A DNA stretch of 38,217 nt from a virus (taxonomy: Duplodnaviria > Heunggongvirae > Uroviricota > Caudoviricetes): the IMG/VR virus record IMGVR_UViG_2547132077_000001, positions 1-38,217 of that record. One strand, written 5' to 3'. Position numbers and translations under genes: made by a program. The notes below the pieces were generated by a model. That model ran no database searches, was not told the origin of the DNA, and saw only the letters and a list, made by a program, of their open reading frames with translations. Below, one piece after another: positions 1,800 through 31,231 of the stretch. The first letter of the stretch is position 1. Each line of letters begins with the position of its first letter.

Positions 1800-3860
1800 C
1801 TATGGGGTTATATAATCATAATCCGACTTCATCCTTTCAGTTTCAGCGTAGCTAAAAGTATTAGCCGCTCCGCACAGGCCAAAGCGACCTCTGTTCATGC
1901 GATGCCCTGTGACAAAAATATTAGTAGAGTATGGTGTTGTGGCTCCGATCTCTACAACTATACATGATTTAGTATTTTCAACCCCTGAAACTCCAACCGT
2001 AAAGGTCATTTCCTTCCACGAGCCTCCACCTACTAATGTTTTTGAAAGTAGTGTAGTTCTTGCTCCATTGTCATTTGCTACATATATGTGCACTAAAAAT
2101 GTTAGTTCAACATCAGCGTTAAACAAAGCCTGGACTGTCACTGCCTCACCATTCACCAAGTCGGCTCGTGGATGTTCGAATATAATCGATGTCGTTGCAC
2201 CAGCATCACTAAGAACAGATGCAATATAACGACTCATTCTCAATGCATTGTTTGGAATCCCTGCACCACTCCTAGTAAACACTGTATTAGATGTTGATCT
2301 TGCAAACCATCCAGGAGCCACAGCAGTTGATGAGTTGGGAGGAATACTTACTGTGCTGTTCTCTATATAAATAATGTCACCATTCAGAGCTGGTATATTT
2401 GCATTGTATTTATCAATAACAGAAACATGGTTAGATGTTAACGGAAGAAGCGGCATATTTTCAGCGACAATCCTTCCGGCAACAATCTTTTGATATGGCA
2501 AATCGTTAATTGATATTATTGGCTGAATAAAACCTGACCCTGGAATATTTGAAATAAATACCTTGTCAACCTCCAAATAGTTCATTATCACATCATCATT
2601 CCCAGCAACAATTATTCTGTTTGAGTTTATGCCATGTAAATTAGCATAAACATCATTTATAGTGATGTCAGTCAGTATCTGCTGCGATGTCGTTTCTGAA
2701 TCGCCAATTTGTACGACTTGTTGGTGTCCAAATGCCATCTCGCAATAAAGTCCATCAACTGAAGAAAACGTTGATGGATATCCAAAAATAACGCATGTTT
2801 TTGCATTCTGTGCGGAGTTGTCTTTTATTCTCGTTGCGACAGCAGATGTATATGACATAATGCCAGTACCGACAGCGCTACCACCCTGCCATGCACATCT
2901 ATTAAATGCAATAAAAAGCCTACTATTTCCTGAATATCTATCTGTTGTGTTACCGCCATCATCAATTGCCTTGACAAAATTATTGGCGTGATCGTTATAT
3001 TCCATGTATGTATTATTTATAATATGTGGCCACCAATTTTGTGCTTTAAAATTAACTACCCACTCGTTGCTATCTTCAGGATTGATAACACGACATTTCT
3101 CTACTGTTGCCATATGAGATGTCCACGGCTCAAATTCAACAAGCTTTGCCGTGCCACCATCCATCATTACATTTCTAATTTCATAGCTGTCTTGAGAAAA
3201 AAATGCTGATCGCTGATCTATACCATCCATGCCCATAGAAAATATTGGTCCAATGTCACTATTTATTGGATCGCATACAAACTGAAAATCAACATGCGTT
3301 GGAGTTTTAAACGTATATCTGCCAAGTTGAAAACCATCTTCATGAATCGGGTTCCAGCGCTTATACCCTGAATATCCTTCTGTAGGTGGTGGATTTGGCC
3401 TTTCATCCAAACTTTGGATTAGTTCAAACTCATGTTCCAAGCTTCTTAGCGAATCGCTTACAGTTCCTGCGCCATCTCCAATATATGTCGAACCTTCGTT
3501 CCCTGTCAGTAAAACTTTGAACTGATCCGGGTCATACTTCAGCACATTCGGAAAATAAAACTGCTGCGCCCCATACGCATCATAAACAGCCATGGAATGG
3601 CCTTGCACAGTTACGAACTTGGCAATCTGTCCGTTATATACCGGATATCCGGCAGCGTTAATGATGATTGGTTGCGATACAGGAACATGAGAGCCGTCTT
3701 CGTTCTCCACATAAACCTGAATCTGGTTTTCAGGGTTTACCGGGTCAGTGTCAATTTTACCGATATAAATTTTGCCATTGGCTACGGCTTTAAAAGAACG
3801 AGCCATAGTGAAGAGTTGCGAAGGCATCGATACGATCACATTGGCTGTAATGTCTGTCAT
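1800..3860 (-). CDS. Tailspike protein: P22/Sf6-type N-terminal head-binding domain fused to a divergent receptor-binding domain
   Basis: First ~115 aa ([46 protein letters not shown]...VLKYDPDQ) match the conserved head-binding domain of P22-like tailspikes as I recall them. The remaining ~570 aa I do not recognise. Position at the end of the virion block next to ant is as in P22. Confidence 0.9.
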
Positions 3861-4907: not shown

Positions 4908-5069
4908 TTACGCACCAATGCGCCCTTCCTTCTTAAAGCTTTCCATTACTCGCTGATAAATCTCAGAATTAACAGACCGACCATTTTCTTCCGCCACCTT
5001 GCGTACCAAATCCAATACTTCTTTAGGCCACCGCAAATTGAACTGTGGCATTTTGCTCATTCCTTTCAT
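4908..5069 (-). CDS. arc: Arc repressor (ribbon-helix-helix)
   Basis: Internal Met of the track ORF gives MKGMSKMPQFNLRWPKEVLDLVRKVAEENGRSVNSEIYQRVMESFKKEGRIGA, 53 aa, essentially the P22 Arc sequence as recalled. RBS GAGGTG upstream. The extra N-terminal residues in the track ORF are read-through of the operator. Confidence 0.95.
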   Translation of the reverse strand: MKGMSKMPQFNLRWPKEVLDLVRKVAEENGRSVNSEIYQRVMESFKKEGRIGA

Positions 5070-5085
5070 GTTCACCTCACAATAT

Positions 5086-5102
5086 AGGTCCACGGTGGAC
5101 CT
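5086..5102. promoter_or_regulatory. Mnt operator (17-bp palindrome AGGTCCACGGTGGACCT) within the Pant region
   Basis: Perfect palindrome seen directly, matching the P22 Mnt operator as recalled. Confidence 0.85.
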
Positions 5103-5111
5103 ATTGAGAAT

Positions 5112-5132
5112 ATAGTAGAGTGCTTCTATCAT
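5112..5132. promoter_or_regulatory. Arc operator (21 bp, ATAGTAGAGTGCTTCTATCAT)
   Basis: Sequence matches the P22 arc operator as recalled (reverse complement ATGATAGAAGCACTCTACTAT), between arc and mnt. Confidence 0.85.
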
Positions 5133-5159
5133 GTCAATACACTAACTTGGAGTGATGGC

Positions 5160-5408
5160 ATGGCTAGAGATGATCCGCACTTTAACTTCCGTATGCCTTT
5201 GGAAGTAAGAGAAAAATTGAAATTAAGAGCCGAGGCTAACGGAAGGTCAATGAACTCTGAGTTATTACAAATCGTTCAGGATGCACTATCAAAACCATCA
5301 CCGATTACAGGATATCGCGACGAAGCTGAACGCTTGGCTGATCAGCAGGCTGAGCAGTTCAAGGCTATAGTGTTTGAGACACTTAAAAGATTTATGAAAA
5401 GGATTTGA
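5160..5408 (+). CDS. mnt: Mnt repressor (maintenance of lysogeny; represses Pant)
   Basis: 82 aa, MARDDPHFNFRMPLEVREKLKLRAEANGRSMNSELLQIVQDALSKPSP... matches P22 Mnt as recalled; divergent from arc. Confidence 0.95.
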   Translation: MARDDPHFNFRMPLEVREKLKLRAEANGRSMNSELLQIVQDALSKPSPITGYRDEAERLADQQAEQFKAIVFETLKRFMKRI

Positions 5409-5409
5409 A

Positions 5410-5745
5410 ATGAGATTTCTATCACTGTTCTTGTTAGCAGTTGTCTCTTCTTCCAGTGCTGAGCTGCGCGAGCTTCAAACGGGTAATGACCTTCTTTACA
5501 ACATTCAACAAGGTAAAAAGGGTGATGATTTTTCATCGCTTTACATTACTGGATATTTGCGCGGAGTAACTGACTCATTGATACTAATTGGTTCTCTATG
5601 TCCTCCTGATGGCGTTGACATGTATCAATACACCGATATCGTTGAGAAATATCTAAACAAAAACCCAGAATCAAGAAATGAGAGTGCAGTTATACTAACC
5701 GCCCTAGCAGTAGGAAAAACATTTCCGTGCAAAAAGAATCAATAA
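5410..5745 (+). CDS. Small secreted protein of unknown function (signal peptide, two Cys in mature part), translationally coupled to mnt
   Basis: ATG at 5410 lies 1 nt after the mnt stop. N-terminus MRFLSLFLLAVVSSSSA is a signal peptide. Occupies the slot between mnt and the ejection-protein genes where P22 carries sieA-type exclusion genes. Confidence 0.7.
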   Translation: MRFLSLFLLAVVSSSSAELRELQTGNDLLYNIQQGKKGDDFSSLYITGYLRGVTDSLILIGSLCPPDGVDMYQYTDIVEKYLNKNPESRNESAVILTALAVGKTFPCKKNQ

Positions 5746-5760
5746 CAATAAGGGCTTAAA

Positions 5761-6150
5761 ATGAAATTGATTATAGCAATGGCTTTCCTTGTCTTCTCGT
5801 TTTCTGTCTCAGCAGAGTGCTGGGTCGTTGGAGATATGCACGGAATAAGCTATTCAGAACGAAATAATTTTCAACCGGAAGAAGATGGTTTTAGTGGAAC
5901 ATTCATCATTAAGACAAACGGTGAAGATGCCAGTATCACATATTCTGGGACGGATGCGGGCGGCATGGCTTACAAAGCATTGTCTAAAAACTCCATCATT
6001 GGAATCGGCGCGAATGGCGAAACTCAACGAGTTATCGACTCATGGGTAATACATCCTAATGGAACAGTTTTAATGTCGAAAACCATTTCTGGTTATGGGA
6101 ATATGGATTCAACCAAAGCTTTTGTTGGAAAAGTAAAAAGAAAATGTTAA
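5761..6150 (+). CDS. Small secreted protein, paralog A (mature form starts ECW, ends with Cys)
   Basis: Signal peptide MKLIIAMAFLVFSFSVSA, then ECWVVGDMHG; C-terminus TKAFVGKVKRKC. Clear paralog of the ORF at 30827..31231. RBS AAGGG upstream. Confidence 0.7.
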   Translation: MKLIIAMAFLVFSFSVSAECWVVGDMHGISYSERNNFQPEEDGFSGTFIIKTNGEDASITYSGTDAGGMAYKALSKNSIIGIGANGETQRVIDSWVIHPNGTVLMSKTISGYGNMDSTKAFVGKVKRKC

Positions 6151-6174: not shown

Positions 6175-8016
6175 TTACTGCTGTGTTGCCTCAGTAGCAA
6201 GCAGCGGCCTGATGGCATTTGCAGCGTTACTCAACGCTCTTTCATAGGCTGGCGTTCCAGCTTTAGTGTTTGCCAGACGTAAGAGAGCATTCCTTGCTGC
6301 TTTGGACTCATACAAACGCATCATTGCACCAAAGCCAGCCTCAAGCCCCATTGATACACCAAGAGTCGCAGTTGCGCCAATCGTCCTTATCCTGTTGGCT
6401 TGTGATTGCCCCGTCTGAGTTACTACATTTGCGGTGTCTGACCTTGCTGTTTGCTGTAGAACTTCATGAAGAGCATCAAGCTCTTTCATGTGCTTTCCAG
6501 AAAAAATAGTGTTGTAAATTTCACCGCCTGACTGAGATTTCAGCTTATTAACTTCAGTGATGAACTTGGCTGGAGAGTCACCGGCCTTTTCCGCTATTTT
6601 GCTGACGTAAGCTGCACGCATAGCATCTTTCCCTTTATCATCCAGGGCGCTCCATATTCGTTTCACGTCAGATGGTTTTCTGCTTAATACAACGGTATTT
6701 ATAAGTTCAGGACTGGCTTCACTGCTTGCCTTGTTGAGCTTGTTAGCAATGTTTTTATTAAGCACCTTATTATAAACGTTTGCATAATCAGAATTTGCTT
6801 TAAGGTATTTTGCTGCGTCTGATGCACCGAGGTTTTTAGCAACTGCGTTACGAAGGTCTTTTGACATTGCATTCTCTACCATATTGGTAGCTGCTTTTGC
6901 CTGGTTGGGGAAGACCATAGCATCTCCCTGAACATTAGATCTAAATGCTGTTCTGTGCTGACGCAAGAGATCAAACGTAACATCCAAATCAGTTGCAGGG
7001 TTTGCTAATTCTTCACGTAGGTTACGCAAGGATGTAAGCAGGCTTTGATTGGCAGACGTCCCAAGCCGTTCCTGTCTTGCGATCGCTGTATTCAGAGCAT
7101 TCATGGTATTTGTGGTATCAACTGCGGCATTACCCATTTTATTGGTGACGTCATTGATAACAGCGCCAGCGGCATCCTTCCGCCCCCTTAACGTGGTGGT
7201 AAGAGATTTCACCACATCATCAGGGTTGTACTCACCAAAACGGTCAAAATAATTACTTACCAGCTTACTACGCGTTGCATATTGCTCCGCTCGCTTTGAG
7301 CCTGTCCCGAGCAAAGCCCCCTCGGCATCCTGAGTTAGGCCGCGAGTGAAAGCATTTTTCGGCGGGATAACATCAGATGTCATTGGTGTCACGCCCATCG
7401 ATTCTGATGTGGCAATTTTCTTCGCCACTTCTGGCGCAATATCACCTTTTATAGCCGTTATTCCACGCCCTATTCCCTTTGCTGCTGCGGAAAGAACACC
7501 CTGAGTGGCAAGGTTAACTCCGGCATTTTTAGCTGCATTTTGTGCGAAATCGCCTTTCTGATTTGCGGCCTCTGCCAGTGATCCAATAGCCATGCTTCCT
7601 GCCGTTCCAACTCCTGGAACTAAATACCCACCAATTGTTTCACCGGCTTGCGCGTAGGGGTCTGTCGGTCTGTCTACTGGACGATAAACATCATCCAAAA
7701 CCTTGGGTCCACCAAGCCCCTGACTGATTGCATTAATCAGACTTGCGCCGCCCTGCAATACGTCAAATGGTATGTTTACCAGACCACGACCAGCCTGTTC
7801 TGCAATTTGCCCTGCACTTTGACCACCAGTGAGCCAATCGCCAGCTTGTTGCATCAATGATGGTTCTTCCCGTGTTGGTGCATTATTGGCCTGATTAACT
7901 GTTTGTTGCTGAACAGCCTGACCAGCAAAATACTCATCAATGGCGGTGCCAATATCTTCGGTGCTCGTACCATCAGGAAAGGTAAATGTCTTACCGTTTG
8001 CAGTTACTTTCATCAT
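6175..8016 (-). CDS. Ejection (internal virion) protein, P22 gp16-like
   Basis: 613 aa, N-terminus [15 protein letters not shown]; last gene of the gp7-gp20-gp16 ejection trio by synteny. Confidence 0.85.
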
Positions 8017-9438: not shown

Positions 9439-10134
9439 TTAATAAAGCAGTGAACCAAGCAGACCGATACCAGCACCGATACCAGCACCCCACGGAGTTG
9501 ATGAACCAATTAATTTCGCAAGTCCAGCCCCAGCAATAGCACCAGACGCACCTCCGCCAATAGCAGATTGCATTGCTGATGGTCTGTTGGCATTTGCCGC
9601 TGCAAGAGCCGCACTTTGCTGCGAAATCTGACTCATGTTGTTGGCATATGTCTGCCCGGCGTTTGCCTGACCTTGCAGTGCGCCAAGACCAATATTTGCC
9701 AGATTCTGGTAGTTGTTCATCTGACCAGATAGCCATTGCTGACCAAGCGTTGGTGCGATTGTTGCTAACTGATTACCGGTTGCAGTGGAACCCAATCCAC
9801 CTGTTGCTTCCGCTGCCGCCAGACTCTGATAGCGAGCCTGACCAGCAAGATCTTTGTACTGCTGAGAGTTGTAATACTGGTTAAGTGCCTGACCTTGCCC
9901 TTCCAGAGACGATAAGTTCTCGAGGCTGCCGACATACTTATCAGCCAGAGGAGTAAACGGCTTCAGGTTGTTCATGATGGTGTTGAACTGCTGATTTTGC
10001 AGGTCTGCGGCATACTTCTGAGATTCTGCTGCATACTTTGCGCTTTTATCAGAGCTGCCACCTTTCCCGCCTTTTTCAGGGCAATAAGGTTCCTCGCCGC
10101 GCAGTTTTCTGCCCAGCTTAAATGCATATAACAT
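9439..10134 (-). CDS. Ejection protein, P22 gp7-like
   Basis: 231 aa with Gly/Ala/Gln-rich low-complexity C-terminal part; synteny. Confidence 0.8.
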   Translation of the reverse strand: MLYAFKLGRKLRGEEPYCPEKGGKGGSSDKSAKYAAESQKYAADLQNQQFNTIMNNLKPFTPLADKYVGSLENLSSLEGQGQALNQYYNSQQYKDLAGQARYQSLAAAEATGGLGSTATGNQLATIAPTLGQQWLSGQMNNYQNLANIGLGALQGQANAGQTYANNMSQISQQSAALAAANANRPSAMQSAIGGGASGAIAGAGLAKLIGSSTPWGAGIGAGIGLLGSLLY

Positions 10135-10136
10135 GG

Positions 10137-10595
10137 CTATCTCCCGTGATTCAGGAAGTCGATTAGTTCTTCGCGTGTGGCGCTGTAAAACGTTACGTTA
10201 TCCACGCCTTTGAAGTATTTCTTGATGGTTCCTACACGCTTAAGGCCAATCATTGCGCAGTAAATCTGCCCGTGGCGGAATTTGCGTGCGGCGAACGATG
10301 TGACGCACTGAACGGTGGTGTTAGTCAGAATGTATCGCCAGAACGCCAGCCCGATTTCCTTGCTGAAGCCGCGAATCTCTGGCAGGTACATGGCGTGGCA
10401 ATCGAATGTCAGCGGCTGAATCTCCTGATAGTAAACAATGCCGCCGAACTGCCCGTGCACGTTCACCTCAAAGTAACGGCAATCAGGTTTGTAGTCGTAT
10501 CCATCACCGTTGTTGCTCCCGGCGATAATGTCGGGGTGATTTCCCACGGCTTCTATCAGGTCGATGTTTCGCGTTGGTTTGAACTGAATCATCAC
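10137..10595 (-). CDS. P22 gp14-like virion assembly protein
   Basis: 152 aa; position between tail needle and gp7-like genes, 4-nt overlap with tail needle gene. Assigned by synteny only. Confidence 0.65.

Positions 10596-29878: not shown

Positions 29879-31231
<1,353 letters not shown>

Follow-up and report, generated by a model that had tools for sequence, protein, structure and literature searches.

A second Hex-family gene in the sieA slot of a P22-like E. coli prophage and the predicted export of Hex proteins as periplasmic barrels

Introduction

T4 Sp (spackle), which inhibits the gp5 tail lysozyme, and P1 Sim are soluble periplasmic exclusion proteins that carry signal peptides. SieA of phage P22, a multi-pass inner-membrane protein, blocks DNA entry through its action on the gp16/gp20 conduit (PMC10461980). 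Other accessory defence genes are carried on the PRM transcript: lambda rexAB and 933W stk occupy the slot that hex occupies in phage 434 (PMC3564112), although their products are unrelated to Hex and cause abortive infection from the cytoplasm or inner membrane.

Hex is encoded by one of the few lysogen-expressed genes of the model phage 434 besides the repressor. In 1980, as cited in PMC3564112, Susskind and Botstein reported that P22 is excluded by Salmonella lysogens of lambda imm434 unless these are hex-. Shkilnyj, Colon and Koudelka (2013) then showed by RT-PCR that the PRM transcript extends through hex in 434 lysogens, that spontaneous phage release rises 30-fold when hex is deleted, provided that the cells are recA+, and that a leaderless, plasmid-borne form, sHex, complements partially, with phage release down about 7-fold (PMC3564112). 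In vitro, 5 µM sHex (6 kDa) inhibits RecA-stimulated cleavage of the 434 and P22 repressors and is without effect on the cleavage of lambda cI or LexA (PMC3564112). The resulting model is that of a cytoplasmic Hex, translated from an ATG inside cI, which binds 434- and P22-type repressors, shields them from RecA-stimulated autocleavage and thereby makes lysogeny more stable.

Here we analysed a 38,217-nucleotide stretch of DNA (IMG/VR record IMGVR_UViG_2547132077_000001, positions 1 to 38,217; hereafter the window), which is a complete P22-like E. coli prophage with tailspike, ant, arc, mnt, ejection-protein, head and lysis genes, a nin region and a 434-type immC. It carries two members of the Hex family, hex itself and a paralog that we call hexA. 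The gene hex was known; what is new is the conservation of a leader and a cysteine throughout the family, the predicted barrel fold, and the observation that the published sHex fragment starts at the predicted signal-peptidase site.

Results

Two Hex-family paralogs in one prophage

A first-pass annotation of this DNA had proposed that the ORFs at 5761..6150 and 30827..31231 encode homologous small secreted proteins. Both ORFs are present, and BLASTP aligned their products end to end at 31% identity (E=3e-15). Both also match PHROG 2651 ('unknown function'; 2e-60 and 8e-59, respectively), while sequence searches of Pfam, NCBIfam, PADLOC and the PDB returned no match for either. The annotation did not recognise the family, yet the second copy is phage 434 Hex, also Sf6 gene 38, a gene known since 1980, and the Emek GenBank record already notes the similarity of a hexA-type gene to Sf6 gene 38. 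The two products occur in the same prophage in E. coli 1368KP, and both paralogs are found together in at least four IMG/VR contigs. Tandem copies were looked for at the loci of family members and none were found.

The hexA gene lies in immI, for which the earlier map had to be corrected: Arc is encoded at 4908..5132 on the minus strand and Mnt at 5160..5408 on the plus strand. The translation of mnt matches P22 Mnt (RefSeq labels it an Arc-family DNA-binding protein), and the mnt/arc/ant DNA is 88% identical to that of P22. A consensus scan gave, as pattern matches, a Pmnt-like sigma-70 promoter (5104..5132, plus strand, TTGAGA-17-TATCAT) face to face with a Pant-like promoter (5137..5109, minus strand), a position that matches the divergent Pant/Pmnt arrangement of P22 immI. 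From Pmnt the gene order is mnt, a 111-aa gene and hexA. The middle gene, at 5410..5745 on the plus strand, encodes a T6SS amidase-immunity protein of the Rap1a/Tai4 family that carries a signal peptide of its own (Pfam PF18602, E=9.7e-15, 55.3 bits, cut-off 27.7; 'Rap1a/Tai family immunity protein' in RefSeq), and we refer to it as rap1a. Beyond it, hexA (5761..6150, plus strand) encodes a 129-aa precursor and is convergent with a P22 gene 16-type ejection protein gene at 6175..8016 on the minus strand (PHROG 770 'DNA transfer protein', E=7e-280), which lies 24 nt from the hexA stop. This neighbour marks the position as the sieA slot, where P22 carries sieA (PMC10461980); the window has no sieA. 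The first-pass placement of one copy after mnt, in the P22 sieA slot, stands, and this copy is the last gene there before the gene 16-type gene; the first-pass description of the mnt slot, however, missed the Rap1a/Tai4 gene directly 5' of hexA.

Only 1 nt separates the mnt stop from the rap1a start, and 15 nt, with an AAGGG Shine-Dalgarno sequence, separate the rap1a stop from the hexA start. This spacing suggests that mnt, rap1a and hexA form one operon, with mnt as its first gene, read from the Pmnt-like promoter. From that operon structure we infer that hexA is expressed in lysogens. The exact hexA sequence is found on 790 public contigs. It is a new, uncharacterised member of the Hex family, in the same PHROG as 434 Hex, that occupies a different lysogeny slot from hex, after mnt in immI rather than after cI.

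The second copy lies in immC. A PRM-like promoter at 30105..30134 on the plus strand, found by consensus scan, corresponds to the annotated pRM of phage 434 and is followed by the cI repressor gene of the 434 immunity type (30198..30830, plus strand; HTH and S24 peptidase), whose product is identical to the 434 repressor at 209/210 positions (99%). The hex gene (30827..31231, plus strand) encodes a 134-aa precursor that is 96% identical (128/134) to 434 Hex. The hex ATG and the cI TGA share bases as ATGA, a junction that implies translational coupling and is shared with phage 434. As the first-pass annotation described, this copy is joined to the cI stop where lambda has rexAB. Over the cI-hex region the DNA is ~97% identical to the immunity region of phages 434, Sf6, HK446, HK633 and Sf101. 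The annotation had also held both slots to be transcribed in lysogens; this agrees with the RT-PCR result for hex of 434 (PMC3564112), and for hexA it stays at the level of the operon structure.

An in-frame extension of the hex ORF (30755..30826, plus strand, from the ORF list) reaches upstream into the cI coding region. The start at 30755, which gives a 158-aa 'Hex', is probably not the real start of hex, since the family members begin with a signal peptide and the curated GenBank note of phage 434 (CPT_434_50) reads 'repressor protection protein' and 'wrong start codon inferred'. The phage 434 record annotates hex from the same ATG as the window gene. Both paralogs are real genes, as purifying selection indicates: dN/dS is 0.11 when hex is compared with 434 hex, and hexA gives 0.24-0.44 in comparison with its alleles.

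A leader and a cysteine conserved throughout the family

Heuristic scoring predicts a signal peptide at the N-terminus of each product: the n-region is basic, a hydrophobic core follows, and the residues at -3/-1 are small. In HexA the leader is MKLIIAMAFLVFSFSVSA, followed by ECW; the predicted signal peptide spans 5761..5814, the predicted signal-peptidase site is SVSA|ECW, and the mature protein (ECW...KRKC) would be encoded by 5815..6147. For Hex the corresponding regions are 30827..30880 and 30881..31228, with the predicted site SANS|ECW. Each product contains exactly two cysteines, C20 and C129 in HexA and C20 and C132 in Hex, so that one lies near the mature N-terminus and one at the C-terminus.

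These features were compared across the family. Searching 1.84 billion representative proteins with an HMM recovered 175 relatives, nearly all of them single-domain proteins of 120-140 aa, whereas a word-indexed homolog search found close relatives only, even with a 121-sequence profile. In the alignment of 121 full-length members, every sequence has a hydrophobic leader and every sequence has a Cys at the C20 position, two residues after the predicted cleavage site. The n-region contains Lys or Arg in 119/121, the -3/-1 rule is satisfied by the same heuristics in 102/121, and two glycines, G28 and G123, are almost invariant (120/121 each). The C-terminal Cys was counted among 127 full-length representatives and is present in 119 of them; a second pair of cysteines occurs in 74 of the 121 aligned members (~60%). 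The Hex family therefore bears out what the first-pass annotation said of the two window proteins, namely that each has a signal peptide and a cysteine near either end of its mature chain. A lipoprotein reading of the invariant Cys was rejected, as there is no lipobox and the residue before the first Cys is mostly Glu. Judged from the family alignment, the Hex proteins appear to be exported to the periplasm.

A predicted eight-stranded barrel

AlphaFold2 (AF2) models of both proteins are all-beta. The Hex model, built with 121 sequences in the alignment, has a pLDDT of 92.7 and a pTM of 0.82, and the HexA model, built with six, has a pLDDT of 85.0. In each the leader is a helix, and the two cysteines lie on the first and last strands. 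The high-confidence prediction is a small, soluble barrel of eight strands. A conserved Glu and Trp (E94/W96 of Hex) are on one strand face.

Foldseek gave no match below E=0.02 and returned only generic small barrels, among them weak resemblances to FABP/CRABP, the avidins and the barrels of TbpB, NHBA and HpuA. When hydrophobicity averaged over the family was followed along the strands, no strand had a lipid-facing hydrophobic strip of four or more residues, and the hexA and hex products contain no hydrophobic helices beyond the leader. The lack of a lipid-facing belt and of an aromatic β-signal at the C-terminus indicates that the predicted barrel is soluble rather than embedded in the outer membrane.

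Loci of relatives

The hexA-type gene abuts a gp16 homolog in 77/80 IMG/VR loci, and these gp16 homologs are very variable, with 29-100% identity. The arrangement in the window, with rap1a between mnt and hexA, is found in only 13 of the 80. Most commonly, a lipoprotein gene on the opposite strand separates mnt from hexA, and in those loci hexA must have a promoter of its own. The hex type, for its part, lies directly 3' of a 434-type cI in all 79 IMG/VR loci with upstream sequence. In diverged imm434-like modules the repressors are 81-86% identical, as against 50-59% for Hex.

Lysogeny slots recur for distant members of the family. One follows an S24 cI with a 4-bp overlap (P0031), one follows a non-S24 repressor, also with a 4-bp overlap (P0125), and in a third locus (P0094) the order is S24 repressor, lipoprotein gene and homolog. 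Elsewhere a member adjoins the terminase (one locus), lies in a mobile element with DotM and DnaB, or stands beside a P4-type integrase, and others are found singly in chromosomes. Sites outside phages, in non-enteric Proteobacteria, include one between asd and leuB, one beside smpB, and one in a toxin/immunity islet; a distant member in Arsukibacterium is 1.5 kb from a Tse2/Tsi2 pair. The contig scan for such contexts used the four-Cys subgroup and yielded 4 loci, a thin survey. Given these occurrences outside phages, a role tied to P22-like phages cannot hold for the family in general. In E. coli 631, a similar prophage has a different gene after the repressor, which encodes an unrelated multi-pass membrane protein and does not belong to the Hex family.

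The published sHex fragment

The 2013 study took as Hex the 158-aa ORF that starts inside cI, at window position 30755 (PMC3564112). The fragment used there, sHex, was identified by MALDI-TOF and starts at E43 of the 158-aa numbering (PMC3564112). Its cloned DNA begins GAATGCTGG, which encodes Glu-Cys-Trp, and E43 falls exactly at the predicted ANS|ECW signal-peptidase site. [quoted passage not shown] Its last residue, N103, corresponds to residue 79 of the real precursor. The fragment thus spans E19-N79 and, by the model, holds strands one to four of eight, about half of the barrel, without the C-terminal Cys. It was recovered from the insoluble pellet via 4 M guanidine (PMC3564112). With half of the strands, no C-terminal Cys and recovery through guanidine, sHex cannot have the native fold.

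PMC3564112 makes no mention of a signal peptide, the periplasm or a membrane, and our literature search found no paper that mentions a Hex signal peptide or re-examines the Hex mechanism. Hex is named again in subsequent work of that group on the stability of lysogens.

Discussion

Proposed function

We propose that hexA and hex each encode a Sec-type precursor that signal peptidase I probably cuts before Glu-Cys-Trp. The product would be a soluble periplasmic up-and-down β-barrel of eight strands and ~111-116 residues. A disulfide from the Cys at mature position 2 to the one at the C-terminus would probably lock the barrel seam. Both would be accessory genes placed for expression from the prophage, hex by translational coupling to the imm434 repressor on the PRM transcript and hexA as the last gene of the apparent Pmnt-mnt-rap1a-hexA operon, between mnt and gene 16. 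Hex and HexA may then serve as heterologous superinfection-exclusion factors that protect the lysogen from the periplasm. Their binding partner could be something that an incoming phage deploys in that compartment, such as its ejection-protein conduit or a virion peptidoglycan hydrolase, and binding would block DNA entry. By analogy with SieA, T4 Sp and P1 Sim, the candidate target is the gp7/gp20/gp16 conduit or a virion murein hydrolase.

Three observations lead us to favour superinfection exclusion: the early genetics of hex, the position of hexA in the sieA slot, and the speed at which Hex diverges compared with the repressor. The first-pass annotation had likewise suggested superinfection exclusion, and this agrees with the sole recorded genetic phenotype, the exclusion of P22 by 434 hex as cited in PMC3564112. 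Taken as a whole, the proposal that Hex and HexA are exported periplasmic lysogen-defence barrels, most likely for superinfection exclusion, has in our estimate about an even chance of being right; export, the disulfide, the role of hexA and the target are the parts that we infer.

P22 SieA and hexA share the slot between gene 16 and the immI/tailspike region, and both are presumed to be made by the prophage. [quoted passage not shown] The logic proposed for Hex would be that of T4 Sp and P1 Sim, each a periplasmic protein that stops an incoming phage after adsorption, although T4 Sp is helical and the sequences of Sp and Sim are unrelated to Hex. HexA and its Rap1a/Tai4 neighbour are both small, predicted to be exported and apparently co-transcribed from Pmnt. 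However, the Rap1a fold is helical, unlike the all-beta Hex and HexA, and neither the hexA nor the hex product has a Pfam match to PF18602 at E<=1. The MliC/PliC lysozyme inhibitors (including Brucella PhiA) showed neither a profile match nor a specific structural similarity to the Hex proteins.

Alternative readings

The Rap1a/Tai4 neighbour raises the question of whether the Hex-family barrels are orphan immunity proteins against a periplasm-acting T6SS effector or bacteriocin, protecting the host from competing bacteria much as Rap1a neutralises Tae4-type amidases; this is the main rival to phage exclusion. Periplasmic immunity proteins are typically small, exported and disulfide-bonded; hexA lies 15 nt 3' of a bona fide immunity gene with which it appears to be co-transcribed, and members are found near Tse2/Tsi2 in Arsukibacterium, singly in chromosomes and at island edges, as is the case for orphan immunity genes. 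Against this, no candidate cognate effector directly adjoins any member examined (within a thin non-phage survey), no T6SS immunity family in Pfam, NCBIfam or PADLOC matches, rap1a is absent from most hexA-type loci (present in 13/80), and the sole recorded genetic phenotype is phage exclusion. We consider this reading unlikely, though worth keeping in view. The scatter of the family over Proteobacteria on assorted mobile elements would suit an envelope protein that benefits the host without any part in defence, for example a small calycin-like ligand-binding barrel of the periplasm with effects on stress tolerance, virulence or the physiology of the envelope, in the manner of the lambda bor/lom morons. 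Such a protein would fit the weak resemblance to FABP/CRABP, the avidins and TbpB/NHBA/HpuA, and E94/W96 of Hex, on one strand face, could line a pocket. The structural matches are non-specific, however, with nothing below E=0.02 in Foldseek, and such a role would account neither for the reported exclusion of P22 nor for the strong association, seen repeatedly, with repressor genes and the sieA slot, which makes it decidedly unlikely in our view. A miniature outer-membrane β-barrel of the OmpX/PagP/Lom kind, masking or perturbing a phage receptor, is suggested by the GenBank record of phage Huey, in which the gene is labelled PagP. BAM substrates carry a terminal aromatic β-signal, but the Hex proteins end in Cys and a variable polar tail. 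The mature protein has only 111-116 residues, several of its strands are 4-9 residues long, and no strand has a continuous lipid-facing hydrophobic strip. On strand length, the missing hydrophobic belt and the C-terminus we rejected this possibility, which seems to us extremely improbable.

The published cytoplasmic model comes from the only biochemical study of Hex, yet it sits poorly with the family. Mnt, the repressor that precedes hexA, is not known to be a RecA substrate, and the leader and Cys pair are conserved family-wide, including in members that follow unrelated repressors or none. Hex also diverges far faster than the repressor that is supposed to be its partner. In favour of the model are the 30-fold induction seen in hex- recA+ cells only, the ~7-fold drop with plasmid sHex, and the inhibition in vitro (PMC3564112). 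The sHex fragment, though, was recovered from a guanidine-treated pellet, is missing half of the eight strands as well as the C-terminal Cys, and begins at the predicted signal-peptidase site, and export was never considered in that study (PMC3564112). The RecA-dependent phenotype could conceivably arise from a polar effect on cI expression, since loss of sequence at the 3' end of the PRM message might lower repressor levels and so also give such a phenotype. It is therefore unlikely, in our view, that the native function of Hex is a cytoplasmic one against RecA, and the model as a whole, with its start inside cI, is very unlikely. The 158-aa cytoplasmic protein of the published work differs from the exported barrel predicted for the family, and the export signals predicted across that family contradict both the published mechanism and the start codons in databases.

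A wider reading extends the superinfection-exclusion proposal to all relatives. The Hex family may be a widespread, hitherto unrecognised class of soluble periplasmic defence barrels, coupled to the maintenance repressors of temperate phages and other mobile elements of Proteobacteria, and in the periplasm they would stop either superinfecting phage or peptidoglycan-targeting weapons that arrive from outside. The cytoplasmic anti-RecA role would then be an artefact of a wrong start and a misfolded fragment, and the two copies in the window, with different specificities, would form a periplasmic defence set together with the T6SS immunity protein. We offer this reading tentatively, as one that falls somewhat short of an even chance. 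If Hex is exported, its published mechanism needs re-examination and the P22 exclusion of 1980 needs a periplasmic explanation. The second copy, in the sieA slot beside a T6SS immunity gene, suggests that P22-like prophages assemble periplasmic protective sets.

Annotation and occurrence

The Hex family is known but mis-annotated. In RefSeq the two paralogs begin at an internal Met and are 104 and 103 aa long, so that the leader and the invariant Cys are lost, and public databases label members of the family 'hypothetical protein' or 'prophage protein'. Public contigs that carry the exact paralog sequences number from hundreds to over a thousand. Of 5426 complete E. coli genomes, 334 have one copy or more, and 29 genomes have two matches.

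Accessory genes between mnt and gene 16

The upstream neighbor of hexA is rap1a (5410..5745, + strand), which starts 1 nt downstream of the mnt stop codon. Its product carries a signal peptide and matches PF18602 above the curated cut-off, placing it in the Rap1a/Tai4 family of type VI secretion amidase-immunity proteins. This makes rap1a an orphan type VI secretion immunity gene, with apparent expression from a prophage maintenance operon. Twenty-five complete E. coli genomes have both rap1a and hexA, as do 13 of 80 IMG/VR loci. Among GenBank phage genomes, tblastn returned only two weak partial matches to rap1a, both below 60% identity.

In the commonest hexA arrangement, the position held by rap1a in the window is occupied by an opposite-strand gene for a 143-aa lipoprotein (2464..2895, - strand, in the related locus L039), with an LLSGC lipobox and a weak match to a PEGA domain. 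In another related locus, L007, a 150-aa protein of PHROG 6067 takes the mnt-hexA position, and its N-terminus is weakly similar to the Cor exclusion lipoprotein. Accessory genes with envelope-targeted products seem to accumulate between mnt and gene 16.

The gene 16-type ejection protein itself is encoded at 6175..8016 (- strand). Two PHROG matches fall in its N-terminal half (residues 1–331): the whole half hits a family labelled “transglycosylase” (E = 3e-123), and residues 31–216 hit another whose label is “lytic tail fiber protein”. If that activity is real, the protein would act as an enzyme in the periplasm, the sort of target open to a Hex-like inhibitor.

The post-repressor slot and Hex divergence

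A prophage of E. coli 631 (L012) carries the same mnt-rap1a-hexA module as the window with a different immC. There, a LexA-family repressor gene is followed by an unrelated gene for a 122-aa multi-pass membrane protein (9917..10285), and the post-repressor slot is therefore a site of variable cargo. Within diverged imm434-like modules from IMG/VR (L175–L181), the Hex homologs are only 50–59% identical to Hex of the window, while the adjoining repressors retain 81–86% identity to its cI. The accessory gene is diverging much faster than the regulator to which it is coupled.

Annotation of hexA and hex

Both paralogs, hexA (5761..6150) and hex (30827..31231), are given an internal Met start by RefSeq/PGAP, in the records WP_002432306.1 (104 aa) and WP_001383907.1 (103 aa); the related loci concerned are L002 8437..8751 and L013 35587..35898. 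As annotated, both proteins have lost the leader and, with it, the invariant Cys. The opposite error was made in the 2013 description of Hex, which puts the start 72 nt upstream, within cI (PMC3564112). The hex ortholog of phage Huey (GenBank PQ850609.1) is labelled [quoted passage not shown], which is probably a mislabelling of a small barrel; our guess is that it came from a structure-based pipeline.
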